Source: Leucoraja erinacea (taxonomy: Eukaryota). Taken from it: a stretch of 64,000 nucleotides of DNA. Of the stretch, positions 1,326 to 26,164 are shown piece by piece (the stretch's first letter is position 1; every line of letters begins with the position of its first letter). The stretch spans positions 7,378,001 to 7,442,000 of the forward strand of contig NC_073411.1 of NCBI RefSeq assembly GCF_028641065.1, in the 5' to 3' direction. A model generated the notes under the pieces. That model did not search any database and was not told where the DNA came from. It saw only the letters and a program-made list of their open reading frames with translations. The position numbers were made by a program, and so were the translations under genes.

Positions 1326-1417
1326 ACGGGACTGGCGCACTCCTTGCTCACTGAACAACTTCCGCCTGCAACACTGACGTTGAGCCAGTCACAGCGCCAG
1401 GTGGAAGAGGGCTCCGC

Positions 1418-2384: not shown

Positions 2385-2600
2385 GCACTATACTACACAT
2401 TTGGGACAATTTACATCAGCCAGTTAACCGACAAACCTGCCCGTCTTCCGAGTGTGGGAGGAAACCAGAGCACCTGGAGAAAACCCATGTGGTCAGAGGG
2501 AGAATGTACAAACTCCGTACAGGCAGCACCCAATGTCAGGATCGAACCCGGGTCTCTGGCACTGTGAGGCAGCGACTCTAACCCTGCACCACTGAGGCAC
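2385..2600 (-). mobile_element. V-SINE (HE1-like tRNA-derived SINE)
   Basis: tRNA-like head with GGTTCGATCC B-box and the V-domain GGAGTTTGTACATTCTCCC...CTCCCACAC. Further copies at ~1-75, 3930-4110, 6240-6390, 25440-25725, 57400-57500, 60540-60815, 61430-61565 and 63480-63630. Confidence 0.8.
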
Positions 2601-2702
2601 CTCTGACACAGGATGACCTGACCTGACATAGGAATGATCCCCACCAACAATAGTGTTGGCTCAAAGGGATATTCCCAGTAAATCACTCAATTGGAGCTGC
2701 TA

Positions 2703-3712
<1,010 letters not shown>

Positions 3713-3732
3713 TAACCCCCACCGACGGCTCA

Positions 3733-3852
<120 letters not shown>

Positions 3853-5138
3853 TCAAACTTAAAGCTATCCCATCATTACCTTAACATTTATATACAACTT
3901 CTGGCACTCAATGGACGAGTGCAAATAGGGCAGTCTTACAGCACCAGTGATGAAGGTTCGAACCCGACTATGGGTGCCACTTGTCTGTGTGGAGTTTGAA
4001 CTTCCGTTTCCTCCCACACTCCACAGGCGTCCCTTATGCGTGTAGGATAGTGTTAATGTGCTGGGATCGCTGGTTTGTCTATTTTGAACTGGAAGGGCTG
4101 TGTATCTATAAACTATATTAAATTGGTGCTACTGGTGTTGTGTGGAGTCTGCACGTTCTCCCTGTGATCATGAGAGTTCCCACCAATTGCTCTAATTACC
4201 ACCAACATCCCAATAACATAGGGATGGCAAAATAGGATGGTGGAAACAAATTCAACGGTAACTTTCGGATGAGAAAAACCTGGCAATCTGACACAATTAT
4301 TTGCATGTCTGCAGGGAAAAAACAGACAAAATGGATCAACCTCAGTAAAATATTATTGGGCAGAGTGCATGTGATTTAACAATAGCGCACAAGATCTGAG
4401 AGGACTTTGTTAAATTTAACTGCAGATACCAAAATCTGTGTGAATCCACTGAAGTTCGGGGTGTCAAAAAAGGAACAAAGTGTTGGAATAATTCAGCAGG
4501 TAAAACAGTGTCTGTTGAGAACATGGATGGGCAACGTTTTGGGTTTTGGGGACGTTCTACAGATTGATTCTGTGTGTGTTTAAAAGAGGGAAGAGAAGAA
4601 AGCTGGAAGAGAGAAAAGGCTGGAATGGTTAGGTGTGAGAATGAGAGATCAAAGGAAACGGAGTTCAAGGAAAATGTAGAATAGATCATGGTTAGCTGGG
4701 GGATGGTAACAACGAGGTGTACAAAGTAAAATTTAATCAGGAGGACTGTCAAATTGGTCAGAGAAATAGGATGGGGGAGAGATGGAGAGAGGTTGATACA
4801 GGTGGTGGGGGGCTGATAGGAGGACGGTGGACAAATACCAGAGATGAAAAGGCAGAGGATGGGAGACAAAAGCATTAAAGAGCCGCAAATTGTGAAGCGA
4901 GAGGAAGAAATGTAGCTGGAAGGGGGGGGAGGGGAGTAATAGGTGCAAATCCAGTGAGGCACAGGAGAGGGAAGGCTGGGGATTGGGAGGGTGACGCATA
5001 ATTTAACCCCAAACGGCAACACAATGGACTTTGTACCCAATATGGGACTATTCTGTTTAACATGAAATGCTGGTGGACGCTCAGTCCGAATCAAGGTTGC
5101 CGTTGGTAGATTTTTGGACACCAATGAATGGGAAATCA

Positions 5139-5330
<192 letters not shown>

Positions 5331-6019
5331 TTAGAACCAGCGGTCAGTTATCACTCAATACAATGTCCTTCTAAACCCAGAATGTTCTGCTTTTAGTGAT
5401 GCTCAAGGAAGACGGATAACTACTCAGTTTACAGATCTGCTAACCTGGGTTTACCAATCCATTTTGGGGAAAGTTTAGTTCAGAGGTGCAGCATGGAAGC
5501 CGCCCCTTCGGCCCAAAGCACCATCGAGTTTGCGTTGACCATGATCACTTGTACATTAGTCTGGACCACGGGCCCAATGCACGACATCGTCGGGAGCTCG
5601 CAGGTCACAGGTTGGTGACCTGTTCTCCGGAGCTCTCGCAACAACAGCTGCGTCCGCCGGACTGGAGGGCCGCAGCTTCGACCACCCCGGGCCGCGGAGT
5701 TCGGATTCAGCCGCGGGACTGACATTACTTACCATCGCCCGGCAGGGTCACAACATCTGAAGCCTGGATCGCTTCGGCGCAGAGGGAGAATAAGGGAAGA
5801 GACAAAGACTTAAGACTTTTGCCATCCATCACAGTGAGGAGGTGCCTGGTGAACTCACTGTGGTGGATGTTAATTTGTGTTTATTGTGTGTTTTTGTCAT
5901 CTTTACTATATGCAGGACTGCAAGGCAACAACATTTCGTTCAGACAATAAAGGCTACTTTGACAGTCATATCCTAGACACATGGGGGACAATTTACAGAA
6001 GTCAATTAACTTACAAAAC

Positions 6020-6240
6020 TGAGATAGGCACAAAAAGCTGCAGTAACTCAGCAGGACAGGCAGCATCTCTGGTGAGAAGCAATAGGTGACGTTTCGGGTC
6101 AAGACCCTTCTTCAGAGTCTAAAGAAGGGTCTCGACCCGAAACGCCACCCATTCCTTCTCTCCAGAGATTCTGCCTGAGTTACACCAGCCTTCTGTGTCT
6201 ATCTTCATTTTAAACCAACACCTGCAGTTCCTTCCTATAG
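6020..6240. mobile_element. Palindromic PLE-derived mini-element nested in a V-SINE
   Basis: Two inverted copies of the GCTGGAGTAACTCAGC...GACCCTTCTTCAG repeat plus a CATCTGCAGTTCCTTC-type tail; SINE sequence on both sides. Confidence 0.8.
6088..6115 (-). ncRNA. Minimal hammerhead ribozyme motif (sense to PCNA pre-mRNA, intron 1)
   Basis: Minus strand reads CTGAAGA-A-GGGTC-TT-GACCC-GAAA-CG-TC. Confidence 0.6.
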
Positions 6241-8479
6241 AATTTACAAACCTGCACGACTTCGGAATGCGAGAGGAAACCAGAGCACCTGGAGAAAACC
6301 CTCACGGTCACAGGGAGAGCGTGCAAACACCGGTGCATACAGCACCCGAGGTTAGAATCGAACCTGGTACTCTGGCAAAGTAGGGAAGCAAATCTTAAGG
6401 AAGCTGTTCCACGCTTACAAACCTGGCTCCCTCTCCTGATGCTGCCTGATCCAGGGAACATTGTCCATCGCCAGTTTCTGCTTTCTAACATCTGCACAAT
6501 TTACGTCAGTTTTAGGAATATATAGGCACCCAGTACCCGGAAGGATCAAATAATCTATCCAGATCATTATTCATCTTATAGGATGCACACAGTCCATCGC
6601 CTAGTAACCCACCACCACTTTGGTGAAGATGACTTTTGAGGGTCGTTGGGTGTGAGAATAGGATATTCTGCACTGTCTCCCATTGAGTCTATACAAGCTC
6701 TTTGATCAATCTCATCTCACCATCTATTTATTCCCACATGATCCTCAACCTTCAACCTCAACCATTGATTACCAACCAATTACATATTTGGTGCAATTTG
6801 AAACCATTTTCAAAATAGATCAGCCACCATCGATTGGCAGGCAAGACTCTGTGGGCGTAATTTCTGCTCCTACGTCTTATGGTCTACACTGACGATGTCT
6901 TGGATCATGGAAGGATGCTGGAGCAGCTGGAAGAATCCCATTCAGTCACAGGGATAACGTACAGATCCACACATATAATGCCAGAAATCAGGATCGAACA
7001 CGGGTCAGTAGATGCACGCGGCTGCAGTTCTACCAGCTGCACCATCCACGGCGGTTTGAAGAGGTCATACGGTAGGCAAAACGCATGCTAGCATCGAGTA
7101 TGAGAAATTCTCTTTTACAGATACATTTTAACCATTGGTCCATAGACATTTGTTCATGTTATCGGAACAGATTAGGCCATTCAGCCCATCAAGCCTTCTC
7201 TGGCATTCAATCATGCCGTTCTCTATTTCCCTCTCAACCCCATTCTCCTGCCTTCTCCCCATAACCCAACATCCATGGGCAAATAAATGCACAAAGTAGG
7301 AGCAGGCACAGGGCCTCAAATCTGCTCAGCCTCCACTGATACCATAACCTCAATGCCACGTTCCAACCTACCCTTGCCCGCCAACTCTTCGGTGAAACTA
7401 TTCAGAATCAGTCTGAAGGTCCCGACCTGAAATATCACCCATACATGTTCTCTGGAAACTCCAGCATTTGGTGTCCTTTTGTGTAAACCACCATCTGCGG
7501 CTCCTTGTTTCTACATCTATTGCCCTTTGAGGTAGATTGGCAAATACTTACGATTCTCTGCAAGAACAAAAAGCTACCCGCCTTAAACAGGGGACTGCTT
7601 ATTACTTTTGTCATCATTTGAACTTGAATCTCCCACGAGAGAGAAAACATCTTCTCCCCATCAAGACCCCTTAGAACTTGTCTATTTCAAGCAATCTTTG
7701 GTTTAATTGCAAAGACGCACTCAACAGCCAACTTATTCATTACTCTGAAGATAGACACAACATGCTGAAGTAACTTGGCAGGACAGGCACCATCTTCTTC
7801 AGCAATAACTCAGCCGGTCTGATAACATCTCTGGAGAAAAGGAATAGGGACAGGCACCATCTTCTTCAGAAGGGTCTCGACCGAAACAGCACCCATTCCT
7901 TCTATCCAGAGATGCTGCCTGTCCCGCGGAGTTAAGGCACAAAATGCAGGAATAATGCAGGCACAAATAGACACAAAATGTATGATATCTGTCTGTTGCC
8001 TGTCCCGCTGAGTTACTCCACCATTTTGTGTCCATCTTCGATTTAAACCAGCATCTGCAGTTCCTTCCCACACATTATCCTCCTCTTTACACTCAAGAGA
8101 TCTGGATGAAATATGGAGTCAGGTCGTTGGCCTAACACCATCTACATTAAAGGTGGATAGTCACACAAAGCTGGAATAACTCAGCCGGTCTGATAACATC
8201 TCTGGAGAAAAGGAATAGGTGACATTTCGGGTTGAGCACCCCTGGAGAACATTACGGGTCGGAACCCTCTCTCCCTCCCCTTCTTAAGACCGAGTGGAGG
8301 CAAATAACTGGGGGCTACACAGTAACAAACGTGTCTGTGCAGGAAATTGCTTGGAAGGAGGGGGAGGGGGGGGTTAATACAGGACAGGAGGCATCATCCA
8401 ACAGTCAAAAAAAACAAACGAGAGGAAAATTAAAAAGCTAATTTGAGTTCGCAACGTGATTGAAACTAAATCTCCCCGC

Positions 8480-8580
8480 TTTTTGAATGAAATGTAACAA
8501 GTCTGGGCAGGTTCCCGCCAACCCGGCCTTTGTCGTTTCGCGCGCAAGTGACGTCACAGCCGGTCCGGTGGCGCCTTTTT
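8480..8580. promoter_or_regulatory. PCNA intron 1 CpG-rich E2F/CRE module
   Basis: TTCCCGCCA (8512-8520), TTTCGCGCG (8536-8544) and the palindromic CRE TGACGTCA (8549-8556) in a small CpG-rich patch. Confidence 0.65.
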
Positions 8581-8951
8581 GTAACAAAAACGGAGGGAAA
8601 TGTCGGGGGCAGGTTTGGAAAAATAAAACCCCATGTCCCAGCCACACATCCACAAACATGCTGAAGTAATGTTACACACACACGGGTAAAAGTCAGTGAC
8701 ACTCACTCGACTACTAGCCGCTGCAACCATTGTAGCAATAAACACACAAGTTGCACAAAAACGCTACATGCATTTGGACCACTATGTAACATTTCCCAAG
8801 TTTAGATATAAGCCTTGAATCTAAAGCATATACATGATGCTTTTTTGGGGTGAGTGGATGTCATATTCCAAGACAGGACCCCATTTTCTCGGTGTATTTA
8901 ACATAGAATAGTGTTTTTAAATTTATTTTTTCTCTTGCAAACGTTACGTTA

Positions 8952-9360
<409 letters not shown>

Positions 9361-9477
9361 ATTTAAAAATTATGGACCTAAAAATAAATTTTGAAAACCC
9401 TCATTATTTGAATCACATTTTCCTGATACTAACTCAATTAATATTAATATGAAGGGTTTCGGCCCGAAGCGTTGCCA

Positions 9478-9870
9478 GTAATGTTTGTGGCTGCAGGCGT
9501 CGGTACTTTAGAAGCTATCCTAAGAAATCACATGTATAAATTCCCATTTGCAAGATAAATGACTAAAAATGTTATTATTGTGGCTTTGTCAAAATAAGGG
9601 TTAGCACTACACGCTACGAATCCCAGCTGTGGGGACACTGGTATCGTTGTCTCATTGTAGGACATTGATCATTCTTTTAATCTGGATTTTTAATTCATGT
9701 ATTGTGTTTTTAAAAAATATATAATTTATGATGCTTTTATAAGTGATACACTAAGATTTTATATGTACTTTATGATATATTTTTTAATATGCAATGCATT
9801 TTTTTAATGTAATGTTGCCCCTTGTCTGGACCTCGAGTCCGTAATAAAGTTTATTACTATTATTATTATT
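9478..9870 (+). mobile_element. LINE 3' end (RTE-X-like) nested in a PLE mini-element
   Basis: Remnant MFVAAGVGTLEAILRNHMYKF...LWGHWY, AT-rich UTR, AATAAA and a (TTA)n tail. It splits a PLE repeat (9451-9478 / 9870-9926). Clade assignment is from memory. Confidence 0.55.
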
Positions 9871-11673
9871 TCCTTCGCTGCATAGGTGCTTCCTCACCCG
9901 GAGTTTCTCCAGCATTTTTGTCTACCTAATATTAATATTAATTGAGTCTCAAGCAAAGTCCTGGCACGATACGTCACCCAATCTTTTTCTCCCCGCTGAG
10001 ATACTCCAGCTTTTCGTGTGTAAGCCAGTACCTGCAGTTATTTTCTGCACATATTAAGACTTATTCCTGAAAATTGACAGTTGCAAATTCAAAGCAAACG
10101 ATGTAAACATCTTTTAGATTGTAAAACACTGTGTTAGTCCCTGCTTAATTTGCTCGTTTTCTACTGCTCAAAGGTCTAATCGGAAATGTACAATGAGCAA
10201 ACATTATCTGTTCATGTCTGAATCGTCTTCTAACCTTTTGGCATGTAAGAATTGTCTGCTAACCTTTTTGCTGTCAGTTAGTTGTTCATCAGTTGAAAGG
10301 AAATAGCGATATTGTATAGTTATATATTAGAATTTACAACAAACTGTCAGATGCATTAGAGTCCACTTAGACACCAGAGGGTGCTGCAATCTGGAGCAAC
10401 AAATGATCTGCTATCCAGCATCCTTCTACCACCACCCTAAGCACCTTTCTTTCCACTCGTCCTGCTCCCACTACCCACCTCCCACTATTCCAGATCCCCC
10501 ATTTTTTTATCCCCTCCCCTTCCCTTTCCTCCGCTCTCCTTTCCACCCACCCTTCCCCACTTATTATCTCCAGCCATGGTTCGGTCCAACTTTGGTTACC
10601 ATCTGCCTTTCCCCCCTCCCATCTGGCATCTGTCAAGCAACCACTTCACCTAGATTCACCTATCACTTGCCAGCCCTTGGCCCACTTCACCTCTCTACCA
10701 GCTATCTCATTTCTACTACATCAGCCTGAAGAAGGGTCCCGACCTGAAACGTTGCCTGTACATTTCCTACCACAGATACTGTCTGAGTTCTTCCAGCAGT
10801 TTGTTTTTTACTCATGGACACAGTCCTCCCCAACATTAAAAGCGTCCACATGAGATGTTGCCTCAGGAAGGTGGCGTCTATCATCAAGGATCGTAACCAT
10901 CTGGGCCAAGCCCTCTTCCTGCTACTACCATCCGGCAGAAGGCACAGAAGCCTGATGCCCCATGGAACCATGTTCAGGAACAGCTACATTCTTAATGAAG
11001 AAGAGTCTCGACCTGAAATGTCACATATTACTTTTCTCCAGAGATGCAGCCTGTCCCGGCGAGTTACTCCTGTGGTGTCTGTAAAGATTTTCATTGTACC
11101 TTTATCTCACCGTACTGGTGCATATGACATTAAACTCGACTTGATCCATATAACCTCTAATGCAATTGGAGAACAATTCGACAACCATATCACAATGCAG
11201 ATAGATAGACACAAAATACTGGAGTAACTCACAGATCTCTGGAGAGCATCTCTGGAGAGAAGGGATGGGTGATGTTTCGGGTTGAGACTCTTCTTCAGAC
11301 AGTGAGTCAGGGGAGAGGTAGATTAGAGATATGGAAGGGTAATGTGTGAAAATGGCAGATCAAAGCAGATGATCATCATTCAAAATGTAGAATGATTCAT
11401 TGTTAGCTGAGGGAAAGGTGACCAGGAGGCACACAAATAAGAATTGGCACTTTCATTTCACTGCACATCTCGTATGTGTATGTGACGAATAAACTTGACT
11501 TAACTTGACTTGACTTGAAGAAAATGAATCAGGAGGGCAGTGAAACTAGTCAGAGAACTAGGGTGGGAGAGGGACGGAGAGAGCGGGAAAGCAAGTGTTA
11601 CTTGAAGTTAGAGAAGTCAATATTCATACCACTGGGTTGTAAGTTGCCCAAGTTTCACTGTGTCCTGCATTTA

Positions 11674-12290
11674 GGAGGACCATTGCCCTGGTGTTGGGAG
11701 GACCATTGACCAGTGCTCTGCCCCGACCCCTGGTGTTGGGAGGACCATTGCCCTGGTGTTGGGAGGACCATTGGCCAGTGCTCCCCATCGCCCCCTGGTG
11801 TTGGGAGGACCATGCTCCCCATCGCCCCCTGGTGTTGGGAGGACCATGGGCCAGTGCTCCCCATCGCCCCCCTGGTGTTGGGAGGACCATTAGCCAGTGC
11901 TCCCCATCGCCCCCCTGGTGTTGGGAGGACCATGGGCCAGTGCTCCCCATTGGCCAGTGCTCCCCATCGCCCCCTGGTGTTGGGAGGACCATGGGCCAGT
12001 GCTCCCCATCGCCCCCTGGTGTTGGGAGGACCATTGGCCAGTGCTCCCCATCGCCCCCTGGTGTTGGGAGGACCATTGCCCTGGTGTTGGGAGGACCATG
12101 GGCCAGTGCTCCCCATCGCCCCCTGGTGTTGGGAGGACCATTGCCCTGGTGTTGGGAGGACCATGGGCCAGTGCTCCCCATCGCCCCCTGGTGTTGGGAG
12201 GTCCATTAGCGGGTGCTCCCCTGGTGGGAGGTGCTCTGCCGCGACCCCTGGTGTTGGGAGGACCATTAGCGGGTGCTCGTCATCGCCCCC
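11674..12290. repeat. Minisatellite directly upstream of CDS2 exon 1
   Basis: About 15 copies of CCCTGGTGTTGGGAGGACCAT, arranged as ~42-nt units (with GGCCAGTGCTCCCCATCGCCC added) mixed with 23-nt units. Confidence 0.95.
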
Positions 12291-12610
12291 CGTCGGCCGG
12301 GACGACCGGACAGGACAGGACAGGAGCGGAGCTGTCGGTCGGCAGACAGACAGACAGACAGTGCGGGTGGATGCCAGGCGGTTCGCCCAGGAGGTGCGGC
12401 TTTCTGTGACTCCCGCTGCCGGGGCCTGGAGTTGGTCAGCGGGCGAGAGCCGGAGCGGAGGCGCGGGATCGGCAGCGAGCGGCAGCGGACGGGCGGAGAG
12501 CGACATGGCGGAGCTGAGGCGCAGGGCCCGCGATGATTCGCAGGATCTGCTGGTGAGCGACGCGTGCGGGATGAAGGGGCGCTCTGCCCCGGCCCGGACT
12601 CGGGCCCAGC
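12230..12610 (+). promoter_or_regulatory. CpG island / CDS2 5' region
   Basis: High GC and CpG density around the ATG, with short (GGACA)n and (GACA)n runs at ~12308-12360. Confidence 0.75.
12505..12552 (+). CDS. CDS2: CDS2 exon 1
   Basis: GACATGG Kozak context in a CpG island; encodes MAELRRRARDDSQDLL (cf. CDS-family M-x-ELR-x-R start); donor CTG|GTGAGC. Confidence 0.88.
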
Positions 12611-14165
12611 CCCCCCCCCCATCCCTGTTTTCCCCCATCCCTTAACATCCCCCATCCCTGGTTGCCCCATATCCTTAACTCCCCCCCCCCCTCCCCTTTA
12701 GGCCCCCCCTTTAGTTGCCCATTCCCTTTAACACTTTACCCCCATTCCCCATTCCCCCCCCCCCCCCCCCCCCCCCCTTTATTTTCTCCCCCCATTCCCT
12801 TTACCCCCCCCCCCCCCCCCCCCCCCCATTCCCTTTATTACCCCCCCCCCCATTCCCTTTTCTCCCCCCCCCATTCCCTTTTCTCACCCCCCCCCCCATT
12901 CCCTTTACCCCCCCCCCCATTCCCTTTAGCCCCCCATTATTCCCTTTATACCCCCCCCCCCCTTTCCCTTTACCCCCCCATTCCCTTTACCCCCCCCCAT
13001 TCCCTTTACCCCCCCATTCCCCCCCTCCCCCATTCCCTTTAAACCCCCCCCCATTCCCTTTACACCCCCCCCCCATTCCCTTTACCCCCCCCCCATTCCC
13101 TTTAACCCCCCCCCCATTCCCTTTACCCCCCCCCCATTCCCTTTACCCCCCCCCATTCCCTTTACCCCCCCCATTCCCTTTACCCTCCCCCATTAGCCCC
13201 CCCATTACCCTCCCCCCCTTCCCATTACCCCCGCCCCCCATTCCCTTCCCCCCCCCCCATTCCCTTTACCCCCCCATTCCCTTTACCCCCCCCCCCCCAT
13301 TCCCTTTAACCCCCCCCATTCCTTTTTATTTCCCCCATTCCCTTTATTTCCCCCCCCCCCCCCCCCCCATCCATTTTACATCCCCCCACTGCCTTTACAC
13401 CCCTTTTCCTCGCCCCACTTGTCCTTTCTCACCCCCTCCCCCATTCCCTTTACCCCCCCCCCATTCCCTTTACCCCCCCCATTCCCTTTAGCCCCCCATT
13501 GCCTTTACACCCCCATTGCCTTTTACCCCCCCATTGCCTTTACAAACCCCCATTGTCGTTTCCCTTTCGCCCCTCCCCCTTTCCCTTTACCTCCCCCATT
13601 CCCTTTACCCTCCCCCATTCCCTTTACCCTCCCCCAGTCCCTTTACCACCCCCATTCCCTTTACCCCCTCCCCCATTCCCTTTACCCCCCCCCCCCCCCC
13701 CTCCCCCCCCCTTTCCCTTTCCCCCCCATTCCCTTTCCCCCCCATTCCCTTTCCCCCCATTCCCTTTATTCCTTTATACCCCCCCCCCCCCCCCCCCATA
13801 TTTCATTTTCTCCCACTCAATCTCTTTTCTCGCCCCAAATTGTGTCCCACCCCCACCCCCCCCCGTTCCTTGCCCTCCCCATTCCCTCTCCCATCCCCTG
13901 ATGCCCCCCTCATTCTCTGGTGTTCCCTTCTATTCTCTGGTTGCCCCTTTCCCCTTTTTTTCACACCCCCACCCGTTTCTATGTCCCCCATTCACTGTCT
14001 TTCCCCCTCCTCCGATTCCTTGGTGTTCTCCCCCCCTCATTCGCTGGTTGCCCCATTCCCTTGTCCACCCACCTACCTGCTATTCTCCGCTCCCATTCTC
14101 TGGTTGCCCTCCCTGTTCCCTGATTTCCCCCCTCCCAGTTCTCTCATCCCTCTCCCCATCCCCTC
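12610..14165. repeat. C-rich low-complexity tandem repeat (Cn-ATTCCCTTTA)n at the start of CDS2 intron 1
   Basis: Dozens of units of CCCCCCATTCCCTTTA with variable C runs, decaying toward 14165. Confidence 0.95.
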
Positions 14166-14463
14166 ACCAGTTTTTCAGATTGTTGGAAGGCAGAATGATG
14201 TCATGGTAAATGTGCTGCCAACCCCTTTCACATACAAGTCAAGCTGTCGCCAGCTGCTCCCCACAGATGATCTGTTTGTTCGAAACCTTGACCTAGTTAA
14301 AGGTTAAATATTTACTACTCGGGAAATCTGTGCAGATTCAGTACAAGCACAGTTTTTCCACATGGCTCAGAGCCTTGGTACCCATGTGTCGGAAGGAACT
14401 AGAGATGATAGTTTACACTGAAGCTGGACAAAATGCTTGCGTAACTCAGCGGGACAGGTAGCA

Positions 14464-15571
14464 GGTACACAAAATTGCTGGAGAAACTCAGCGGATGCAG
14501 CAGCATCTATGGAGCGAAGAAAATAGGCGACGTTTCGGGCCGAAACCCTTCTTCAGACTGATGGGGGGTGGGAGGGGAGAAGGAAGGAAAAAGGGGAGGA
14601 GGAGGAGCCCGAGGGCAGGGGGATGGGAGGTGACAGCTCGAGGGTTAAGGAAGGGGAGGAGACGGCAAGGGCTAGCAAAATTGGGAGAATTCAACATTCA
14701 TGCCATCAGGATGCAAGCTGCCCAGGCGGAATATGAGGCGCTGTTCCTCCAATTTCCGGTGTTGCTCACTCTGGCAATGGAGGAGACCCAGGACAGAGAG
14801 GTCGGATTGGGAATGGGAGGGGGAGTTGAAGTGCTGAGCCACCGGGAGTTCAGGTAGGTTATTGCGGACTGAGCGGAGGTGTTCGGCGAAACGATCGCCC
14901 AACCGCCGCTTAGTCTCCCCGATGTAAATCAGCTGACATCTAGAGCAGCGAATGCAGTAGATGATGTTGGAGGAGATACAGGTGAACTTTTGTCGCACCT
15001 GGAACGACTGCTTGGGACCTTGAATGGAGTCGAGGGGGGAGGTGAAGGGACAGGTGTTGCATTTCTTGCGGTTGCAACGGAAAGTGCCCGGGGAGGGGGT
15101 GGTACTGGAGGGAAGGGAAGAATTGACAAGGGAGTTGCGGAGGGAGCGGTCTTTGCGGAAGGCAGACATGGGGGGAGATGGGAAGATGTGGCGAGTGGTG
15201 GGGTCACGTTGGAGGTGGCGGAAATGGCGGAGGATTATGTGTTGTATTTGCCGGCTGGTGGGGTGAAAGGTGAGGACCAGGGGGACTCTGCCCTTGTTGC
15301 GAGTGCGGGGATGGGGAGAGAGAGCAGTGTTGCGGGGTATGGATGAGACCCTGGTGCGAGCCTCATCTATGGTGGCGGAGGGGAATCCCCGTTCCCTGAA
15401 GAACGAGGACATTTCCGATGCCCTGGTATGGAATGTCTCATCCTGGGAACAGATGCGGCGTAGGTGGAGGAATTGGGAGTAGGGGATGGAGTCTTTACAG
15501 GGGGCAGGGTGGGAAGACGTGTAATCCAGATAGCCATGTGAGTCAGTTGGTTTGTAGTGTAAGACCGCAGA
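14464..15571 (-). mobile_element. 5'-truncated Penelope-like element (Neptune type): RT C-terminus, Cys linker, GIY-YIG endonuclease and 3' repeat
   Basis: Uninterrupted ORF from ~15560 down to 14672: YKPTDSHGYLDYTSSHP...SIPYSQFLHLRRICS (PLE RT thumb), CNRKKCNTC (Cys-rich linker), NIIYCIRC..C.LIYIGET.R.L..RFAEH (GIY-YIG). Flanked by an 11-bp duplication GACAGGTAGCA. Confidence 0.92.
14529..14556 (-). ncRNA. Minimal type I hammerhead ribozyme motif in the PLE 3' repeat
   Basis: Minus strand reads CTGAAGA-A-GGGT-TTCG-GCCC-GAAA-CG-TC: conserved core, stem II with a UUCG loop, palindromic ACGT in place of stem III, and a GUC cleavage triplet. Confidence 0.7.
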
Positions 15572-16284
15572 GACAGGTAGCATCTCTGGAGAGAAGAAAT
15601 GGGCAAAGTTTCTGGTCGAGACCCTTCTTCAGATTGAGAGTCAGGGGAGAAGGAAAATGGAGATATGGAAGAGTAGAAAAAGAGTATAAGGTGTACCCAT
15701 AATCCTTTCCCTATATTTCTAGCCAACATCTTGTGCAGTAACTATGTAAGCTTGAATTGGATCAGGGTTTGCAGCAAACAGACTTCACATTTGATTGACT
15801 CGGGCTTTTCTGATCAGCCTCCATCTATTTTTTGAGTTCCTGCCCACACTGTGATTTTATGCACATTTTCTTCACCTGCCACCATCAGGTTTCAGAAAAC
15901 CATTGGATGTACTGAGCTGAATGGAGAAGGGAGGGTGAGATTCAATGACTAGGCTTCCGAGACGAAAAAGAAACTCCTTCTCCCCTGTCTTACAGTGTGG
16001 TAGCCCATCACAAGAATGCCCCAGGTCTTTCGACAAACATAATGGGATTAGTAGAGAGTATACTTCCTCTATTCTCTGCCATGACAAACCCTGTGAACTA
16101 TAAGGGTCTGAAGAAGGGGTTCGGCCTGAAACGTTGCCTATTTCCTTCGCTCCATAGATGCTGCTGCACCCGCTGTGTACCTGTGAACTATAGTTGGATG
16201 TTCTGATTACTTCAGCCAGTTATAACCAGCATACAATTGGAAGAAAATTCCAAGAAGTTACTTTTTGATTTTATTAATTTTTAA

Positions 16285-17080
16285 GGTTGTAGATGTTGTT
16301 GGCAAAGGCCATGGCAAATTGTTCTTCCCAATTGCCCTTGAAAAGATAGAGGGGGGAGACACCTTCCTGAATTATTGTTGTTTTTATGGAGAAGGTTCTC
16401 TGCAACGCTGTATGGTAGAGAGTTCCAGGATATCATTTCAATTAATGGTAATATATTTGCAATTCAGGACGCTGCACATCGCGGAGGGCAAGCTATGTGT
16501 GGTGGTACTCCAAAATGCCTGCTGCCCCTTGTGCTACATTGTGGTAGAAGCCATGGGTTGAGGAGATGCTAAGTGCATTTCTGCAGTTCATTTTGCGGAT
16601 GACATGCTCATGCAGTTCATGACTGTTCAGGCTGTGGTTAGGTGCCAATGGTGTTGTTGAAGTTGCACTCATCCAGATAAGTACAGAGTATTCCATCTCC
16701 CTCTGCTCTGTAAGTGTTGAAATGTCCTTGTGGGGTGGAGTCATTTGCTGCAGGATGCCTAGTCTCAGGCTAACCTAATGGACTAATTGATCAATGGTGA
16801 CCCCAAGGATAATGATGGTCGGAGGAACTGTGATGATAGCATCATTGCATATCAAGAGAAAGTGGTTGGATGCTCTCTTGGTCATTGGATTACACTTCTG
16901 CAGCAAGAATGTTCCTTGGCATCTGTTTATGCATAACTGTTATCTGAGTCTTACTGCATTTCGTAGGCCTGGACATCTTCGTTTGATGAAATATTGCTAA
17001 TGATGTGCAATCATCAGTGAATTGCCTATGTCTGACCTTATGATGGAAGAAAGTTAACTAATCAAGCAGCTGAAGATGTT
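16285..17080 (-). mobile_element. Old decayed LINE fragment (CR1/L2 group)
   Basis: Degenerate RT-like antisense sequence with the CCCAATTGCCCTTGA 3' motif typical of chondrichthyan LINEs; no intact ORF. Confidence 0.45.
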
Positions 17081-17084
17081 TAGA

Positions 17085-17555
17085 GACAACACGGAAACAG
17101 GTTCTTTGGCCCAACTTGCCCATGGCGACCAAGATGCCCCATCTACATTAGTCTCACCTGCCTGTTGTTGGCCCACGTCCCTCTAAACCTTTCATATCCA
17201 TGTACCTGTCCAAATGCCTTTTACATGTTGGTATTGTAGCTGCCTCGACTACCTTCTCTGGCAGCCGTTCCATGTATCCACCAGTCTCTGTGTGAAAATA
17301 TTGCTTCTCGGGTTCCTATTAAATCTTTCCCTGCTCACCTTAACCAATGTCCCCGGGTTCTTGATTCCTCTATTCTGGGCAAAAGACTGTGCATTTACCC
17401 TATCTATTCCTCACATAATCTTACACACCTCTATGTGATCACTACTCATCCTCCTGCATTCCAAAGAATAAAGTCCTAGCCCGTCCAACCTCTCCCTATA
17501 GCTCAGTCCTTCAAGTCCTGGCAACAACTCATGTCTTCTCTGCACTCTTTCCGGC
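17085..17555 (-). mobile_element. CR1 LINE 3' fragment
   Basis: ERVQRR..LLPGLEGLSYRERLDGLGLYSLECRRM on the minus strand, plus 3' UTR. Confidence 0.8.
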
Positions 17556-17927
17556 TTAAGCCATGAAGAAAGATTATCCGGAGGAACACCTTGAATGAAG
17601 GCCTGGGGCCGGGATAATTGAAACCTGGGATCCACTACCATCATCCTTTGATTGAGATATGTCTTCCAAAAATGAAGTGTGAATGTCTTGATGACCATTG
17701 GCTTCCATTTTATAAGGGCTTCTAAAAGCCAAGCTGGATGAGATGTTGTCTTGATGTCAATGGTGTTGACTCACGCGGTGTTTGAAGGTGGAAGGTTGGA
17801 TTTTGGGGCATACATATGATGCTACAAACAAGTTTACCTTTTTTTTACATGTTAAGTGACCTTTATCACCTGTATTCCATTACTCCAATAAGTCGATTGT
17901 CAACTGTCTGATCTTGTTTTAATTTAG

Positions 17928-18049
17928 GAACCAGATGCGGGGCCAATCACAAGTGAAGTGACAACGGAATCGGGGAGTTCGGACATTCCTCCTTCTGTTG
18001 ATAACACTCCAGAGGTGCTGAACAAGGCTCTATCAGGACTGTCTTCAAG
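17928..18049 (+). CDS. CDS2: CDS2 exon 2
   Basis: TTTAG| EPDAGPITSEVTTESGSSDIPPSVDNTPEVLNKALSGLSS(R) |GTATAG. Confidence 0.9.
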
Positions 18050-18605
18050 GTATAGTAATATTAGGGATGAAAAAGATTTGTTATCAGGTTCCTCGGGTTT
18101 GTTCTTGGCATAAGACGTAATTAGAAGTCAATTCCTTTTGACCACGAAGACTAATGCTTGCAGTTTGGACAGACATATGAAGTGTGATGTAGATCTATGC
18201 CTAGCTTGCATGTCGGGGAAATTATTGGGATTAAGTGTAAGTAATACTGCTGAAGTCAACAGAAAGCAGTATCAGGTGTAAAACCAATGATACGCCATGT
18301 GTAGACACAAAATGCTAGAGTAACCCTTCTTCTGAAGAAGGGGCTTGACCCAAAACGCCACCCATTCCTTCTCTCCAGAGACGCTGCCTGTCCCGCCGAG
18401 TTACTCCTGCATTTTTGTGTCTATAGTCACTTTAAACCAGCATCTGCAGCTGCTTCCTTCACGATACACCATGGGTCTTCCACTTGCTAAATTAGGTAAT
18501 AGAATGCTACCCCAATCAGGAATTTAAAGTATTGAGCAAATGAATTGAATTTATGATTTGGATTTAATCCACATGTTGGAACTAAAGATGTTTTCCTTTT
18601 GACAG

Positions 18606-18702
18606 ATGGAAGAATTGGTGGGTGCGAGGAATTCTGACACTGGCCATGATTACGTTCTTTTTCGTCATCATCTATCTAGGACCCATGGTTTTGATGATGA
18701 TC
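18606..18702 (+). CDS. CDS2: CDS2 exon 3
   Basis: WKNWWVRGILTLAMITFFFVIIYLGPMVLMMI; boundaries GACAG| and |GTAAGT. Confidence 0.97.
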
Positions 18703-19959
18703 GTAAGTTGCATTTAATTTATCATTCATGCTCTCTATGTATTTAGTCTGTATACTGTTTTATCTGGGGTCCTCCATTAAACTAATTTCCACATAAACAT
18801 TCAATGAACCAGCTTCAAGCTCTTGTGTTTCTGCAAGAGCAGGAAATTATTTTAATTCCATTTATCTCCCATCATACTGACTGATACGGGGATTTGGCAT
18901 CTTGAAGGTCATTTGCCATTCACTGTCCAAGAAAGATTTAACTTCCGTTTATAAAATGCCCTTTCTCAACTTTCCAACACCCAAAAACATAGTTGACTGC
19001 TTTCGAAATGTTTGGAAATGTGCCAGTTAATTTACGCGCTGCAAGTTCCCACAACATGCAGAGATTAATTGCCAATGATTTTTTATTTAAGTGGAAAAAA
19101 ACCAGCACTACAGATGCTGGAAATCTAAAACAAAAGCAGAAAATGCGAGAGATATTATTCAGGTCAGGCAGTATCTGGAGAGCGAAACTGACTTAATGCT
19201 TTATGTCAATGACCTTTCATTAGATGTGGAAAAAAAATTCAGAATAATGATTTAAATTTGCAGAGAAGAGATGGAGAGAATAAGATGAATGTCAGAGATA
19301 GGATTGTGACCAAGAAAAAAGGCGATACAGATAGGTATTGAATAGGAGAAGGTATTGAAGGCTTGTTAAAGACATTACATGGAATCACAATTAAAGGAGA
19401 GGAGGGGAGTAGGGAGCCTGTAGGGGGAACACACACTTGATTGGATTGCAACCGCCTCACTTCCATGGAAAAAATCCCCACTTTCGCTGAAGCCCAGGAC
19501 TGGTGCGATGAGTCTATGACTATATAAATAAGAGGCCAGAAGAGAGAAAATAAACTTCTCAGGCTGTAAAATACAGAATACAGCAGTTCTATAAAGTGGA
19601 AGCAGAATGTACGGGGTCAGAAAATCCAGGAGGACAAATAGACAGTATCAGGAGAGAAGGGAGACAAAAAAGCTGGAGAAACTCAGTGGGTGCAGCAGCA
19701 TCTATGGAGCGAAGGAAAAAGGCAGCGTTTCGGGCCGAAACCCTTCTTCAGTATCAGGAAAGAGCTGAGTTACTTCAGAGCTGGCCAGGGATTGAAGGCA
19801 AATAGCTCTCGATGGTAACAGCTGAAACTAAAGGAGAAAGTGCTGGAGATGTCATTAGGCAGGGCCACGTTTGCATGGGAAGAGAAAAAGAGCTATAACA
19901 CACCAGACCAGCAAGAACACATCATAAGGGATCATCGACTAAAGGTGATTGAGTTGATG

Positions 19960-20960
19960 ATCTCTCCTCTTGCTAACCCTCTCCCTAGGGCAACCCCACC
20001 ACAAAAGCAGGTGCTGTCATGCTTACAACAGAACTGTCTGGTTCAACCACAAACTGGTGGAGCTGGTTTACTGAAGTTGTCGAAATTGATGTTGAGCACT
20101 GGGGGCTGGAACATGCAAGACTGGTAGATATTGCACCATCAGATTATGCTGGGACATGAGAGCAGTGTAAGAGGCCAAAGGCGGAGACACAAGAAACTGC
20201 AGATGTTGGAATCTTGAACAAAGGAAAACGTGTTGGAGGAACGTGCAGCAGGCAGCATCAGATAGGTGATGTTTTGGGTTGGGATCCTTGCTTAAGAAGA
20301 TGTCCCGACTGAAACGTAGCCTGTCCATTCCCTTCCCTGCTGCTGCCTGACCTGCTAAGTTCCTACAGCACCTTGTGTTTTGACATAGAGGTCGGGGTAG
20401 GAGTGTAACGGGGAATTGAAGTGACAGGCAACTGGAAACACTGGGTCACCTACATGGAGTGAACAGAGGATTTTTACAAAGCAGTCATCTGATCATCAGT
20501 GTAGAGGTCACCACAGTGTGAGCAGCAAATGCAGTACACTAGAACTGCCTGGCAGTTTTGGAGGAATGTCGGACAGAAATGGGCAAATGTGACTTGCGTA
20601 GGTTGGCATCTTGGTCGGCTTAGATGGGTTGGTCAGAAGGGTTGGGTCCAAGCTGCGGGACTCTAACTCTATAGATTGCAAATGATCACTGGTTTAACTG
20701 GGATTGCTTGTGTCCTTGGATGGTGGGAAGAGAGTAAAACACCAAGGGTTGCCTCTTCTGCAATTGCATGGGAAGGTGCTGTGAGAAGGAGATTGGTATT
20801 GGTACAGATGGAAGAGTGAACCATGGGCGATGGAAGAAAACATCCTGTCAAATACTGAAAGAGGAGGGGAGGAGAAGATGTGTCGGTTGGTGGCATCTCA
20901 TTTTAAAATTGTAAAGGATCATCTGTTGAAAGTGGAGGATGGTGGTGCGGAACGTGGGGG
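19960..20960 (-). mobile_element. Degenerate Penelope-like element fragments with a nested palindromic mini-element
   Basis: Decayed similarity to the GIY-YIG region of 14672-15560 (e.g. GGGGAATTGAAGTGACAGGCAACTGG), interrupted at 20185-20385 by a palindromic repeat. Confidence 0.65.
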
Positions 20961-22023
20961 GGGGGCAAAGGGAACCCTGTCCTTGCACTGAATGACAGCG
21001 TGGGCAGTTAGGACCATTGGAACGCTACCTTTGCACGGGATGGGAGTTGGGAACGGAAGTGTGCAAATTGGAACATGTAGAACACATCTATTCAGTCCAC
21101 AAGTGTGGCCCAGAGATTTTAGTTGCTTGTCATCCTAATTCTCTATCCCACTTCAGCCTGATCGCTGCGTGCTCTGCATCTCACAGTTCCAGCACTTTTT
21201 ATATCTCCTCTGACCACTGGTCCAGACATATTAGCTGCCTTCAGTCTCTTCCCTTTGACACAGGCTTGTGTTATCTGGAAATAGACACAAAATGCAGGAA
21301 TAATGCAGGCACAAATAGACACAAAATGTATGCTGTCTGTCTATTGCCTGTCCTGCTTAATTACTCCACCATTTTGTGTCTATATCTTCAGTGTAAACCA
21401 GCATCTGCAGTTCCTTCCCACACACTGTGTAATCTGGTTTCTTTTGACCTTCATTTTAGTGCAGATTTCACTTTGTTCTTTCCATTCTCCTCTTTGTTCT
21501 GCAAGTTTAATCATGCCTCTTTTGTAAACGTTCCCAGCTATGAATAGACATTACCTACCTGCAACATCAACTGTATTTTTATTTCATTAGATGATGCCTG
21601 GTCTGAGTTTCTCCAGTATGTTCTGTTTAATGATCTGTTTTCAGTTACTGGGAGAATACTAAATGTTGGCCAAGACAGTGTGGATAATTCTAGCCTGCTA
21701 CTGGGAACTAGAGCTTCGGGTTCTTTTAGCAGCTGAGGGAACAAGCAGATTCTCGGTTATGTTTCTCATTTTGAAGGAAAGCACCTTCCAATATAATGTG
21801 TAGGAAGGAACTGCGGATGCTGATTTCCACCGAAGATAGGCACAACATGCTGGAGTTATTCCTCCCAACTGTTTGGGTAGTTTACACCCCAGTGGTATGA
21901 ACATTGACATTAAATTTCAGGTAGTCCCTGCTTTCTCCTCCCCTTCCCAGCCCTCCCTCAGCCCACTGTCTCCGCCTCTTCCTTTCATCTTCCTGCCCCC
22001 CCCTCCCCCACCCTCACATCAGT

Positions 22024-22051
22024 CTGAAGAAGGGTATTGACTCGAAACGTC
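22024..22051 (+). ncRNA. Minimal hammerhead ribozyme motif (sense to CDS2 pre-mRNA, intron 3)
   Basis: CTGAAGA-A-GGGT-ATTG-ACTC-GAAA-CG-TC in the 3' repeat of a PLE fragment (21870-22135). Confidence 0.55.
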
Positions 22052-22777
22052 GCCTATAATTCACTCCATCGTTTCCTTCGCTCCATAGATGCTGCCTCAC
22101 CCGCTGAGTTTCTCCAGCATTTTTGTCTTCTTCACAATATAATGTTCCCTAAGTACTGAATGTCAACCGGGATACTTGTGCTCTTAAGTGTGAAATGGAT
22201 CTTAAATCTACAACAGCTTATGGATGTAAGATTTGTAACAGACTCAAGAGCTCAGTCTGAAGAAGGGTCCTGACCCAAAAAGTTACCCATCCATTTTCTC
22301 CAGAAATGCTGCCTGACCCGCTGAGTTACTCCAGCATTTTGTGTCTACGGTATAAACCAGCATATGCAGTTCCTTTCTACAGCTCAGTTGTACAAACTGA
22401 GTCCACGGCTGCAATTTGTATCACTTCTGGGGGCAGCGGGGTTTTGACTGTAAAATGCATTACAGTCTACCCTCGTTACTATGGACCACTTTATAACAGA
22501 TTTTGGTTATGATTGGCGGAGTGTCCCCATAGTAATCAGACACCACTGTCTCTTTAAGAACACAGGCCTGCTTGTTACACTGCTGGAGGTTTTTGCCTTG
22601 AAAATGCCAACCTATCTGACTCTCGCAAACTCGTATTGAATTTTTATAGAAGGGTGTTGACATTTACCAATGTGCTATCGATGCAATCCTTTGTCGAATG
22701 CCACAATTAGCACCTGTGATTAGGCCCAAATAGCACTAAGAAATTATTAATTCCTTATCTGTCTATTATTTCCTTAG

Positions 22778-22875
22778 GTTCTATGTGTACAGATCAAATG
22801 CTTTCACGAGATTATTCTCATTGGTTACAGCGTTTATCGCTCCTACGATCTGCCATGGTTCCGGACTCTTAGCTG
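22778..22875 (+). CDS. CDS2: CDS2 exon 4
   Basis: [32 protein letters not shown](W); boundaries CTTAG| and |GTGAGC. Confidence 0.97.
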
Positions 22876-25800
22876 GTGAGCACGTGATAAGATTTGGCAT
22901 AAAGGCACACTTGTGGAATGTTACTGTTAAATTAAGCCCTTAGTATCATGTGAAATTTTTTAAAAAGCCATTATTATTGCATGAGTTCTTTCACGTGAAC
23001 AGCCAAAGGCTTAATTTTGTTTCTGATCAAGGTTTCTTCTGTTTTACCCAGACAATTCTGTTTCCATTTTCTCTGAGGAGATTTATGAGGTGTCTTGGTA
23101 CAATTTGACTGGCACATGTGGAAAAAATTGAAAATGCCATGTGAGATTTAAAAGCCAATTATCTAGATATACGTCTCGGCCTAACTAAGCCTTTAACTAG
23201 ATAGTAGTATATTGAAAATTAATGAGTAGGGGATGGACATTACAGCGACTCAATTCTAACCACTTGCTTGTGCATATATTGTAATGTGAGGTATTGAATA
23301 CAGTCATGCTAAAGATGGTTCTATCTTTACTGTTGTTTGATAATCTCAACCTCCCTGCACCAATGGCACATCTACACCCACTCCACCTTGCTCCCACAAC
23401 CTCATCCCCTGGAAATGAGATCTTAAGAATACAGAAAACAGGATTTACATTAAGCATTCTAATCTCAGATAGACACAAAGTGTTGGGGAAACTCAGTGGG
23501 CGAGGCAGCATCTCTGGAGAAAAAGGACGGGTGATGTTTCTGGTTGGAACCCTTCTTGAGACCTTTTATTAAAAAAATAAAAAAAATCTTAAGAGGGAAA
23601 CAATGTGGAGAACTGTGGAACTGGTAAAATGACGAAGGTGGAGGAAGAGGGGATGGTAGGGGAGGTTAAGTAGTAGTTACTTAAAATTAAATAATTCAAT
23701 GTTCATTCCTCTGGGTTGTCAGCTACCCACACAAAATATGAGGTGCTGTTCCTCCAATTTGCATGTGGCCTCACTCTGGCAATGGAGGGGGCCCAGGTCA
23801 GAAATGTCAGTATGAGATTGGCAAGGGGAGTTGAAATGGCAACCGTAAGATCCCGTATGCCTCGGCGGACCGAGCGAGACGTTTGCCCTGTTTATGTTTG
23901 GTCTTGCCGATGTACAGGAGCCCACATCAGATACACTGGTCTGAAGAAGGGTCCTGACCCGTAACATCACCTGTCCAGCACTCCAGGACTTTGTGTCTAC
24001 TGCTTGCACAGACCTCCTTGGTCTCCTTCACCCTCACCCTCACCCCTCCCCCCCCCCCCCCCCCCCCCCCCATCTCTGCAACATCTCCCAATTCCAAAGC
24101 TTATTACATGTCTTAGCTCGTTGAATTCTGTGGAATTGCTTTCTTCTGATTAATTGCTTTTTGCAGATATTCATTTCTCAATCTGTACTGTCTCCATGCT
24201 CTCAGAAATTAAAAATTTCGAATTCTCTCTGAAACATGATGGAGCATAAATCAAATGAAAATCTAAATCTTGCAAACGCTGGAAGTATGAAATCAAAGCA
24301 GAAGGTGGTGGAAATACTGAGCAGATCCAGTAGCATCTGTGGAAGGAGAAACAAAGTTAATGTTTCAGATCAAAGATCCTTCATAAGAACTGGGAACACT
24401 TGATAAAATTATTCATTGATATTGACTCTCTTGGCATAATATCAAATTTCTGTTTAATGTTACTCATTTTAAATGCTTTGGTACATTTAATTACACAGGA
24501 GATACTCCATGTAATCAAAATATTGGTCGTTTTGGTGACCCAGTCTGAGCCACAGATGACACAAACCCATCTAATTCCACTGTAAATTATTATTAATATT
24601 CATTGGTGTTTAATCATACATGAAAGCATCTATCAACATGCATTTCATTTCGAGCAATCGTCTAGACATTTATTATTAAATTAGTGACACGGAGACTCAG
24701 GACTGCAAATGTTGGAATATGGAGCAAAAATGCAAACTGTTGTCGGAACTCAGCCGGTCAAGCAGCATCTGTGAAGGCAAAGGAATGGTTGGTGTTTCAG
24801 GTTGAGATTTTGTATTAGGACTGAATTTCTAAATTAGTCCCTTGTGCCACATTCATTGTACTGATTTTTGTACTCAATATTATTTTAAGGAGTCATCAAC
24901 AACAACATGTATATTTTTTCAGCACTTTTTAATATAGTACAACATTCTATATTATTCACGGAAGTGTAAGAGAGTGTGATATAGCATGGAAAGCCCCTTT
25001 AGCCCATCAAGTTGACGATGACTATCAAACACCCAGTTACACTCTTGAATGGCAGGGTATCCCAAACCATACAATACTCCATGTTCTGCCTTACCAATCT
25101 CTTGAATAACTGAAACAAACTTCTATACTCAATGCCCTGACTGATGAAGGGATGTGAGCTAAATGCCTTCTTCACACCCTGTCTACCTGTGACGCAACGT
25201 TCATGGAATTATCATGTACATGTAATCATGTATAGTCTTTATGCTGACTGAATAGCACACAACAAAAAGCTTTTCACTGAACCTTGGTACACATAACAAT
25301 AATAAACTAAACTAAACTTATCGGCTTGTACTCCGAGGTCCCTCTGTTTTGCAAACATTTCCCAAGGCCCAAACATTTGCTGTACGAGTCCTACCCTGGT
25401 TTGACTTCCGAAAATGCGAGTTAAAGTTTAGCCTTTAGTGAGACAGTGTGGAAACAGGCCCTTCGGCCCACCGAACAGCACCAACCATCGATTACCCATA
25501 CACTAGTTCTATCCTACATACAAGGGATAATTTACAGAAGCCAATTAACCTACAACCCTGTACATCTTTGGAATATGGGAGGAAACCAAAGCACCCGGAG
25601 ATAACCCATGGAGGCAGGTACACAGTGAGAATGTACAAAATTCGTACCGACAGTACCTGTAGTCTGGATCAAACCCGGGTCTCTGCCCTGTACGGCAGCA
25701 ACTCTACCGTTGCACCACTGTGCCTCCCCACTTACTTGAATTAAATGCCATTTTCCATTCCTTGCCCACTTACTTAGCTGATCAAGACCCCACTGTAATT

Positions 25801-26024
25801 GTTGATAGTCTCCTTCACCGGCCTATATGATAATCCAATGACCACAATGGGATAGTGGTGAATTAGACAGTTCCCTTGTTTATGGAAGGCCTGTTCAGAA
25901 GCCTGACAACAGAGGAGCATGAGTCCATTGGTGCTAGCCATCCATCTTCGTAATACAATGTAGTATCCAAAAATATTGTTTACTGCTGGAAACCGTTTGA
26001 CTTTTTGCTGTTTTTCTCTGAAAG

Positions 26025-26164
26025 GTATTTCTTATTATGTGCAAACTACTTCTTCTATGGAGAGACGGTAACAGACACGTTCTTCGCATTGGTTCAGAGG
26101 GAGGAACCTCTCCGGATCCTGAGCAAATACCATCGCTTCATTTCCTTTGCTCTTTACTTGGCAG
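26025..26164 (+). CDS. CDS2: CDS2 exon 5
   Basis: YFLLCANYFFYGETVTDTFFALVQREEPLRILSKYHRFISFALYLA(G); boundaries AAAG| and |GTACTG. Confidence 0.97.

Follow-up and report, generated by a model that had tools for sequence, protein, structure and literature searches.

Minimal hammerhead ribozymes have been described in the terminal repeats of metazoan Penelope-like elements (PLEs), including fish Xena, Poseidon, and Neptune (Cervera and de la Peña 2014; PMC4209133). The consensus given in that study contains an extra nucleotide separating position 9 from 10.1, a G10.1-C11.1 pair, a palindrome at 15.2-16.2, and a helix I of 3 bp. Its count was ~4,000 motifs for the coelacanth and 9,000 for Xenopus, most of them single and probably belonging to truncated elements, and it found monomers to be inactive and dimers to cleave weakly; the dimer model is confirmed in a review (PMC6765202). 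For an anole element, Frangieh et al. (PMC11167929) showed that the hammerhead cleaves only with the element protein, that cleavage is dispensable for insertion in vitro, that reverse transcription starts internally, 111-118 nt into the ORF, and that the cut site has no RNA-seq reads ending at it. In addition, a preprint (10.64898/2026.07.22.740005) describes PLE-derived retrozymes in one cartilaginous fish and cleavage by one of nine Xenopus dimers. Cartilaginous fish are absent among the rows of Fig. S3 examined in PMC4209133, and a search by titles, outside which lay subscription journals, Repbase, and bioRxiv supplements, found no prior description from this group. The supplements of the retrozyme preprint may list the Penelope hammerhead family studied here.

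We analyzed a 64-kb stretch of the genome of the skate Leucoraja erinacea (hereafter the window; coordinates are those of this stretch). The minus strand from 14556 to 14529, read as the reverse complement, is CUGAAGA-A-GGGU-UUCG-GCCC-GAAA-CGUC. The surrounding features are as follows.

14393..14528, minus strand: terminal repeat downstream of the core, of A-type as far as ~14463 and followed by a second, core-less 3' piece of B-type; outer end approximate.
14527..14558, minus strand: stem I of the focal core, with the pairs U2.1-G1.1 (wobble) and G2.2-C1.2 and a mismatched third position.
14529..14556, minus strand: minimal type I hammerhead core, recognized from the sequence, the core scan, the intactness table, and the consensus of Fig. 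S3 in PMC4209133.
14557..14671, minus strand: pyrimidine-rich 3' UTR and start of the pLTR, ending (Y)n-CAG|U immediately before C3.
14672..15574, minus strand: 5'-truncated Penelope-like ORF, 300 codons free of stops, with the end of an RT thumb, a CX4CX2C linker, and a GIY-YIG endonuclease.
15575..15670, minus strand: B-type stub adjoining the point of ORF truncation, with a broken core at 15632; upstream end approximate.

By its sequence, the focal motif is a minimal type I hammerhead of a PLE 3' terminal repeat, a class whose published members cleave weakly, as dimers or with protein help. C3 lies at 14556, and the boxes CUGANGA and GAAA, followed by N-U-H, are all present. An extra A follows A9, preceding a G10.1-C11.1 pair and a 4-bp stem II closed by a UUCG loop. 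Positions 15.2-16.2 form the palindrome ACGU, the core has no stem III of its own, and the cut is predicted 3' of C17 (14529). The core sits in the pLTR behind the PLE ORF, 115 nt downstream of the stop (14672). The skate family and the published minimal hammerheads share CUGANGA with the extra nucleotide, G10.1-C11.1, GAAA, ACGU, and UH; in both, the motif follows the endonuclease within the 3' repeat, is dispersed and for the most part single, and occurs in opposite-strand pairs (PMC4209133). The nearest stem II row printed there is that of Acropora digitifera Neptune, GGGC UAAC GCUC, which is reproduced by one of the related loci described below (L001). However, stem I in the skate is 2 bp, closed by U-G or U-A, compared with 3 bp in the consensus, and the 4-bp stem II is at the short end of the published range (PMC4209133). 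The focal helix I is thus at the lower published length limit and, with its wobble closing pair, more weakly paired than the published 2-bp cases, which consist of two G-C pairs (PMC4209133).

These results confirm what the initial annotation observed and bear out part of its interpretation; its letters for 14529-14556 match the reverse complement exactly. Consensus, position, and relatives all bear out its reading of the motif as a minimal, dimer-type hammerhead of a Penelope-like terminal repeat, the copies are as dense as it stated, and the stem I that it called weak measures 2 bp. It had also pointed to the extra A, citing a viroid precedent; the nucleotide is present, but the precedent is unneeded, as the PLE consensus CUGANGAH already contains it. 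A loose core scan found 11 cores in the window compared with 0.76 ± 0.91 (maximum 4) in 50 dinucleotide shuffles, and nine of the 11 are members of the Penelope repeat. Rfam gave no hammerhead match in the window even at E<=10, as expected because the core lacks stem III.

The ORF upstream of the focal core has a GIY-YIG Pfam match (E 2e-4, slightly below the cut-off) and the linker CNRKKCNTC. Among its 57 longer homologues, the majority contain RT PF00078; a complete RT is present in longer homologues at 43-65% identity, and the named vertebrate homologues come from the bamboo shark Chiloscyllium (61-65% identity). The RT core is missing from the focal ORF, and none was found elsewhere in the 64-kb window. 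Because of the GIY-YIG match, the linker, and the RT-bearing longer homologues, we regard the ORF as the 3' part of a 5'-truncated EN+ PLE; of the C-terminal GIY-YIG and telomerase-like RT that define such elements, the endonuclease and the RT thumb are found here and the RT in the homologues. A CX2-5CxxC linker between RT and endonuclease marks Neptune and Nematis elements (PMC8557442), and the focal element is likely a Neptune-type PLE, judged from a linker that is common to Nematis. It shares with both the C-terminal GIY-YIG, the linker, and inverted truncated copies; unlike them, the focal copy is without an RT core and a 5' repeat (PMC8557442). Remnants of related PLE families also occur in the window. 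One of these extends to the hammerhead.

34505..34869, minus strand: 3' remnant of a related element, 77% identical over 71 aa of the endonuclease and cut off within the second core box.

Counting its endonuclease part, three endonuclease remnants besides the focal one are seen, at 20382-20542, 23683-23838, and 34663-34869, all on the minus strand and with 51-77% identity; in the alignment, the remnant at 23683 has no core directly behind its UTR.

Comparison with three other described systems places the skate family further. The Drosophila virilis Penelope hammerhead shares the 2-bp helix I and a 3' splice site at its 5' edge, proven there and apparent here, but its helix I consists of two G-C pairs, its stem II is bulged and longer, its palindrome has 2 nt more, and it belongs to another clade. 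The anole Poseidon element PAc has in common with the skate family a core in the pLTR, copies that end ~100 nt downstream, and a lack of RNA-seq ends at the cut site; protein-assisted cleavage of PAc was shown experimentally, whereas the skate family is known from sequence (PMC11167929). The non-LTR retrozymes likewise carry PLE pLTR-derived type I hammerheads, with many monomers, but are defined by tandem units (10.64898/2026.07.22.740005), none of which is present among the 61 matches in the window.

As a single protein, the focal ORF found no relative in metagenome contigs. When used as an alignment of 21 proteins, it fetched 79 related loci from them, 43 of which were testable (ORF end reached and at least 200 nt present downstream). 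The same alignment found no relative in viral contigs, in which the core pattern also gave 0 matches. A sense core was located within 400 nt of the ORF end in 15 of the 43 loci, 14 of these at 89-139 nt, compared with an antisense core in none of the 43 and with 4 of 263 ORF control windows; in the other 28 loci, a core was sought within 400 nt and none was found. All 15 related cores contain the extra A. The 15 loci represent ~7 families, and eight of them form a single family that matches the Acropora Neptune row (PMC4209133). Over 12 hand-picked family representatives, which include cores upstream of the ORF, stem I summed to 48 contiguous pairs compared with 10.9 in strand-swapped combinations (0/20000), a test that is not circular because stem I lay outside the search filter. 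Stem II pairing belonged to that filter, so its score is circular. The covariation score was 0.915 compared with 0.212 in shuffles that ignore relatedness (0/500), in a set of 13 aligned sequences composed of two from the window and 11 loci, three of these from one family. Stem I is 3-7 bp long in 11 of the 12 related families and 5 bp in the nearest locus by protein (L016, 51% identity over 297 aa).

Two of the related loci have features of their own. One (L058:2021, plus strand) has a hammerhead with a 6-nt palindrome, ACGCGU, in which position 17 is occupied by A, stem I measures 7 bp, and stem II contains a long insert. Another (L031:269 and L031:3421, plus strand) is a full element with both terminal repeats, each harboring an intact minimal hammerhead, 3.15 kb apart, and provides a natural dimer test case.

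In the window, the hammerhead-bearing repeat is dispersed on both strands.

74..63386, both strands: dispersed repeat family, 54 matches (E<1e-3); 12 inverted, head-to-head pairs account for 24 of these.

The repeat profile was built from 18 copies and gave 61 matches at E<=1 and 54 at E<1e-3, compared with 0 in each of 10 block shuffles; all family counts refer to the 64-kb window. Head-to-head inverted truncated copies are typical of PLEs (PMC8557442). Near-perfect fold-back pairs lie at 60959-61146, 41806-41940, 49652-49828, and 74-189, and pairs of this kind would give long double-stranded RNA hairpins if transcribed. Rfam scores them as sub-threshold miRNA precursors; we rejected the miRNA matches in the window as fold-back pairs of the Penelope repeat.

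Thirty copies, taken from the 61 matches, span the core without gaps. Only five have an intact core, defined by the two boxes, all four pairs of stem II, the palindrome, and a base other than G at position 17, and three of the 30, at 14556, 6115, and 22024, additionally keep a Watson-Crick G10.1-C11.1 pair. Changes affect 46 of 180 CpG bases, 32 of them as CpG-type transitions, compared with 25 of 300 non-CpG catalytic bases and 10 of 120 downstream bases, both 8%; the CpG excess is significant (Fisher p 5e-7), and catalytic and downstream bases do not differ (p 1.0), in a test of 30 copies found with a core-containing profile, a bias that would inflate the apparent conservation of the core. 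A two-sided change is seen at one of the four stem II pairs, in one sequence, and the stem II covariation score of these 30 copies was reached by 137 of 500 shuffles. Neither covariation nor slower core decay, the signs of selected intronic ribozymes, was seen among the dispersed copies of the window, which are likely neutrally decaying relics, inert on host RNA.

The copies listed in the initial annotation all exist (10727 and 16107 correspond to 10726 and 16108, and the others are exact), and its intact sense cores 6115 and 22024 do lie in the introns that it named, PCNA intron 1 and CDS2 intron 3. Its broader claims fared less well. The copy at 62427, which it placed among the paired ones, has a damaged core in which U16.1 is a G. 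Its parses GGGUC-UU-GACCC and GGGUC-CC-GACCC require a 2-nt loop; the actual stem is the 4-bp GGGU/ACCC in both, with the loops CUUG and CCCG, and the stem II differences are not compensatory because the changes fall in these loops. We therefore rejected the compensatory variants, which are explained by loop changes and CpG decay, and the proposal that stem II changes while staying paired does not amount to covariation given the shuffle result. A genome seeded with working cores is likewise hard to reconcile with the few intact copies and their neutral decay.

The two host genes are arranged head to head, with start codons ~3.3 kb apart (9173 on the minus strand and 12506 on the plus strand). 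We take the minus-strand gene to be PCNA, on the basis of a Pfam PCNA_C match, with exons placed from known motifs, and its last exon falls outside the window. The plus-strand gene is presumably CDS2, its name and exons coming from known motifs and its splice sites being read in the sequence. The same head-to-head arrangement of PCNA and CDS2 is found in mammals. The focal element lies in antisense orientation within CDS2 intron 1 (12553-17927), core 6115 is sense in PCNA coding intron 1 (8952..5311), and core 22024 is sense in CDS2 intron 3 (18703-22777). Copies of note in or near these genes are as follows.

6029..6235, both strands: head-to-head inverted pair in PCNA coding intron 1, composed of core 6115 (minus strand, intact, sense to PCNA) and core 6119 (plus strand, broken).
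10726..10789, plus strand: stub with intact core boxes and a G10.1-U11.1 wobble, antisense to PCNA and 5' of its start codon.
21850..22126, plus strand: 3' end of a C-type element with the final ORF codons, the UTR, and intact core 22024; it is oriented in sense within CDS2 intron 3, and its stem I measures 2 bp.
38667..38739, plus strand: stub in sense orientation within the last CDS2 intron; its core boxes are intact, G10.1-U11.1 is a wobble, and stem I is lacking.

The orientation of copies shows no bias in either host (nine sense and ten antisense in CDS2, five and three in PCNA). In the PCNA-sense RNA, the 6115/6119 pair is predicted to form a hairpin of -122.6 kcal/mol in which all 28 core bases are paired and the probability of stem II is 0; core 6115 is thus predicted to be sequestered by its inverted twin. 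Core 22024 is a single monomer with a 2-bp stem I and a stem II probability of 0.012. The evidence does not support the weight given to these sense intronic cores, which the initial annotation singled out.

Other repeats and relics are seen near these genes. The promoter region shared by the two genes contains, immediately upstream of the first CDS2 exon, a tandem repeat at 11650-12280 with units of ~25-45 nt and a CCCCTGGTGTTGGGAGGACCA core. A C-rich low-complexity repeat of ~1.5 kb (12600-14150; ATTCCCTTTA plus C runs) occupies the beginning of CDS2 intron 1 and ends 250 nt from the PLE insertion; its minus strand is prone to form G-quadruplexes. At 2179-2256 on the plus strand, antisense in a PCNA intron, lies an HDV/CPEB3-like ribozyme relic, which Rfam CPEB3_ribozyme scores at 29.2 bits against a gathering threshold of 35 (E 6e-6 for the local stretch); P3 contains one mismatch, and repeat-like sequence follows. 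LINEs carry HDV-like ribozymes, and by analogy this relic is possibly the 5' end of a LINE. Stretches at 3140-3620 and 52990-53440, both on the plus strand, presumably represent the 3' ends of CR1/L2-type LINE ORF2, which they resemble in their motifs; neither has a Pfam match.

The ends of the family copies bear on how they arose. Downstream, the ends of 22 of 32 copies fall 88-127 nt from C3, which fits internal initiation of reverse transcription, and loose read ends occur at 14463 and 14428 within the downstream terminal-repeat part. Upstream, 25 of the 32 lose similarity within 6 nt of C3, and six of the other seven are long-upstream reference copies; the measure is ungapped and the window holds three upstream types, so upstream extension may be understated. 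The stubs thus start at the 5' edge of the core rather than 28 nt inward, at the cut site. A start at this edge could mark where the RNA begins, where it is spliced, or where RT halts at the bound motif. Collectively, these data make it probable that the focal motif is a minimal type I hammerhead in the pLTR of a 5'-truncated Neptune-type PLE, and that the scattered copies are aborted reverse transcription stubs that decay neutrally and do not cut. The core of an active tandem parent would cleave 3' of GUC, assisted by dimerization through the ACGU palindrome or by the element protein. The element enzyme would begin cDNA ~90-130 nt downstream of C3 and mostly stop soon after, and such early stops would leave the stubs and head-to-head pairs; a lone stub that has a 2-bp stem I and lacks a partner would be inactive within a host intron. 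The review that confirms the dimer model (PMC6765202) cites Lunse et al. (RNA Biol 14:1499). For the focal copy, the core at 15632 is unable to act as a dimer partner because it is broken (C11.1 to A, palindrome ACUU), and we rejected a cis dimer of 14556 and 15632.

The activity of the parent is itself uncertain because stem I is a weak 2 bp and stem II is disfavored in the predicted monomer fold. Stem I comprises U-G or U-A plus G-C in all three upstream types, and in a 128-nt monomer context the probability of stem II is 0.000-0.033 for the five intact copies (0.001 for the focal one), whereas eight of 11 relatives reach at least 0.46 and the remaining three do not exceed 0.05. Minimum-energy folds of dimers of three short copies contained no hammerhead dimer, in nearest-neighbor models that omit core tertiary contacts. 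Four RNA runs gave 9,023 to 40,347 reads on 14330-15600 at 88% likeness, and only 133 of 9,023 reads in run X21 were 99% alike, so the reads report the family and not the focal locus. Read depth was highest over the core, ~10 times that of the ORF in X21 and X24. Reads across the cut site in X21 numbered 1794 and 1971 by direction, which may not equal transcript strand, and ORF reads in this run had a two- to four-fold direction bias. Molecule starts or ends were numerous at no position, the cut site included, in fragmented poly(A) and single-cell libraries that would hide most cut ends.

An alternative is that the parent hammerhead of this lineage has lost catalysis and is retained as a signal, for protein binding or for a boundary, or because the element RNA starts there. 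Such a motif would explain the short stem I of all three upstream types, the competing predicted fold, and the stub starts near C3, where loose read ends with mixed flanks also pile up, at 14558-14559 (agreement 0.32-0.48); likewise, no clear pile-up marks the cut site, and only three of the 54 matches start there, at model positions 28-29. In addition, anole hammerhead mutants were unimpaired in insertion in vitro (PMC11167929). However, the catalytic bases are all kept in the majority line and across subfamilies with differing UTRs, and both paired-position differences between subfamilies, U-G versus U-A at 10.4-11.4 and at 2.1-1.1, retain pairing. A 2-bp stem I has also been published for PLEs of Drosophila, Culex, and Oikopleura (PMC4209133). 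We consider loss of catalysis a minority reading, roughly a one-in-four matter. A similarly tentative place belongs to the idea of a fixed step of the PLE cycle at the first base of the hammerhead, at which the template RNA begins or a protein-bound hammerhead halts reverse transcription, so that the motif acts uncut.

Completion of stem I by splicing is less probable. The (Y)n-CAG|U that ends before C3 recurs in three upstream types and looks, by sequence, like a 3' splice site; splicing onto it could supply a new 5' strand that completes stem I, making only the spliced RNA active, and the intron end of D. virilis Penelope maps to the 5' end of helix I (PMC4209133). Yet no GT donor in the upstream sequence yields a stem I of at least 4 bp; three GC or GT-like sites 730-860 nt away do so for the focal copy and none does in the two C-type copies. 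The stubs have no common upstream exon, no such intron is present among the best 15 of 224 read joints, and the spliced and unspliced D. virilis forms both have 2 bp (PMC4209133). We regard this route as improbable.

The short copies might instead belong to a non-autonomous element of their own, resembling a retrozyme or a SINE and replicating by way of RNA that is circular or cut by the ribozyme. The excess of 54 matches over four ORF remnants and the fairly sharp stub ends are in line with this, as is the presence of non-LTR retrozymes in one cartilaginous fish (10.64898/2026.07.22.740005). However, retrozymes form tandem arrays, and no head-to-tail array occurs among the 61 matches in the window. 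Units cut by the ribozyme would begin or end at the GUC site, which the stubs hold internally, and the stubs match the pLTRs of ORF-bearing copies. A separate element is thus about as doubtful as the splicing route. Least credible, and very improbable in our judgment, is a genome seeded with functional cores whose intact sense copies (6115, 22024, and 38667) cut PCNA and CDS2 pre-mRNA, with plentiful family RNA providing trans partners for 54 matches in 64 kb, since 25 of 30 copies are broken, covariation is absent, decay is neutral, orientation is unbiased, core 6115 is predicted to be sequestered and 38667 lacks stem I, and published monomers (PMC4209133) and eight of nine Xenopus dimers (10.64898/2026.07.22.740005) are inactive.

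With the preferred reading of a PLE terminal-repeat hammerhead and its aborted stubs, the skate motif contributes a further lineage to a ribozyme class that was described in 2014 and of which fish and amphibian genomes contain thousands of copies. Cutting of host pre-mRNA by intact sense copies, if true, would matter for gene regulation in these fish, and the evidence points against it. The in vivo role of PLE hammerheads is still described as open (PMC8557442, PMC11167929). With nearly one stub per kilobase, sharply defined ends, and many fold-back pairs, the family allows the positions at which reverse transcription begins and halts to be analyzed statistically with respect to the core. If the motif acts as an uncut structural signal, these abundant stubs would constitute a record for testing the purpose of PLE hammerheads.
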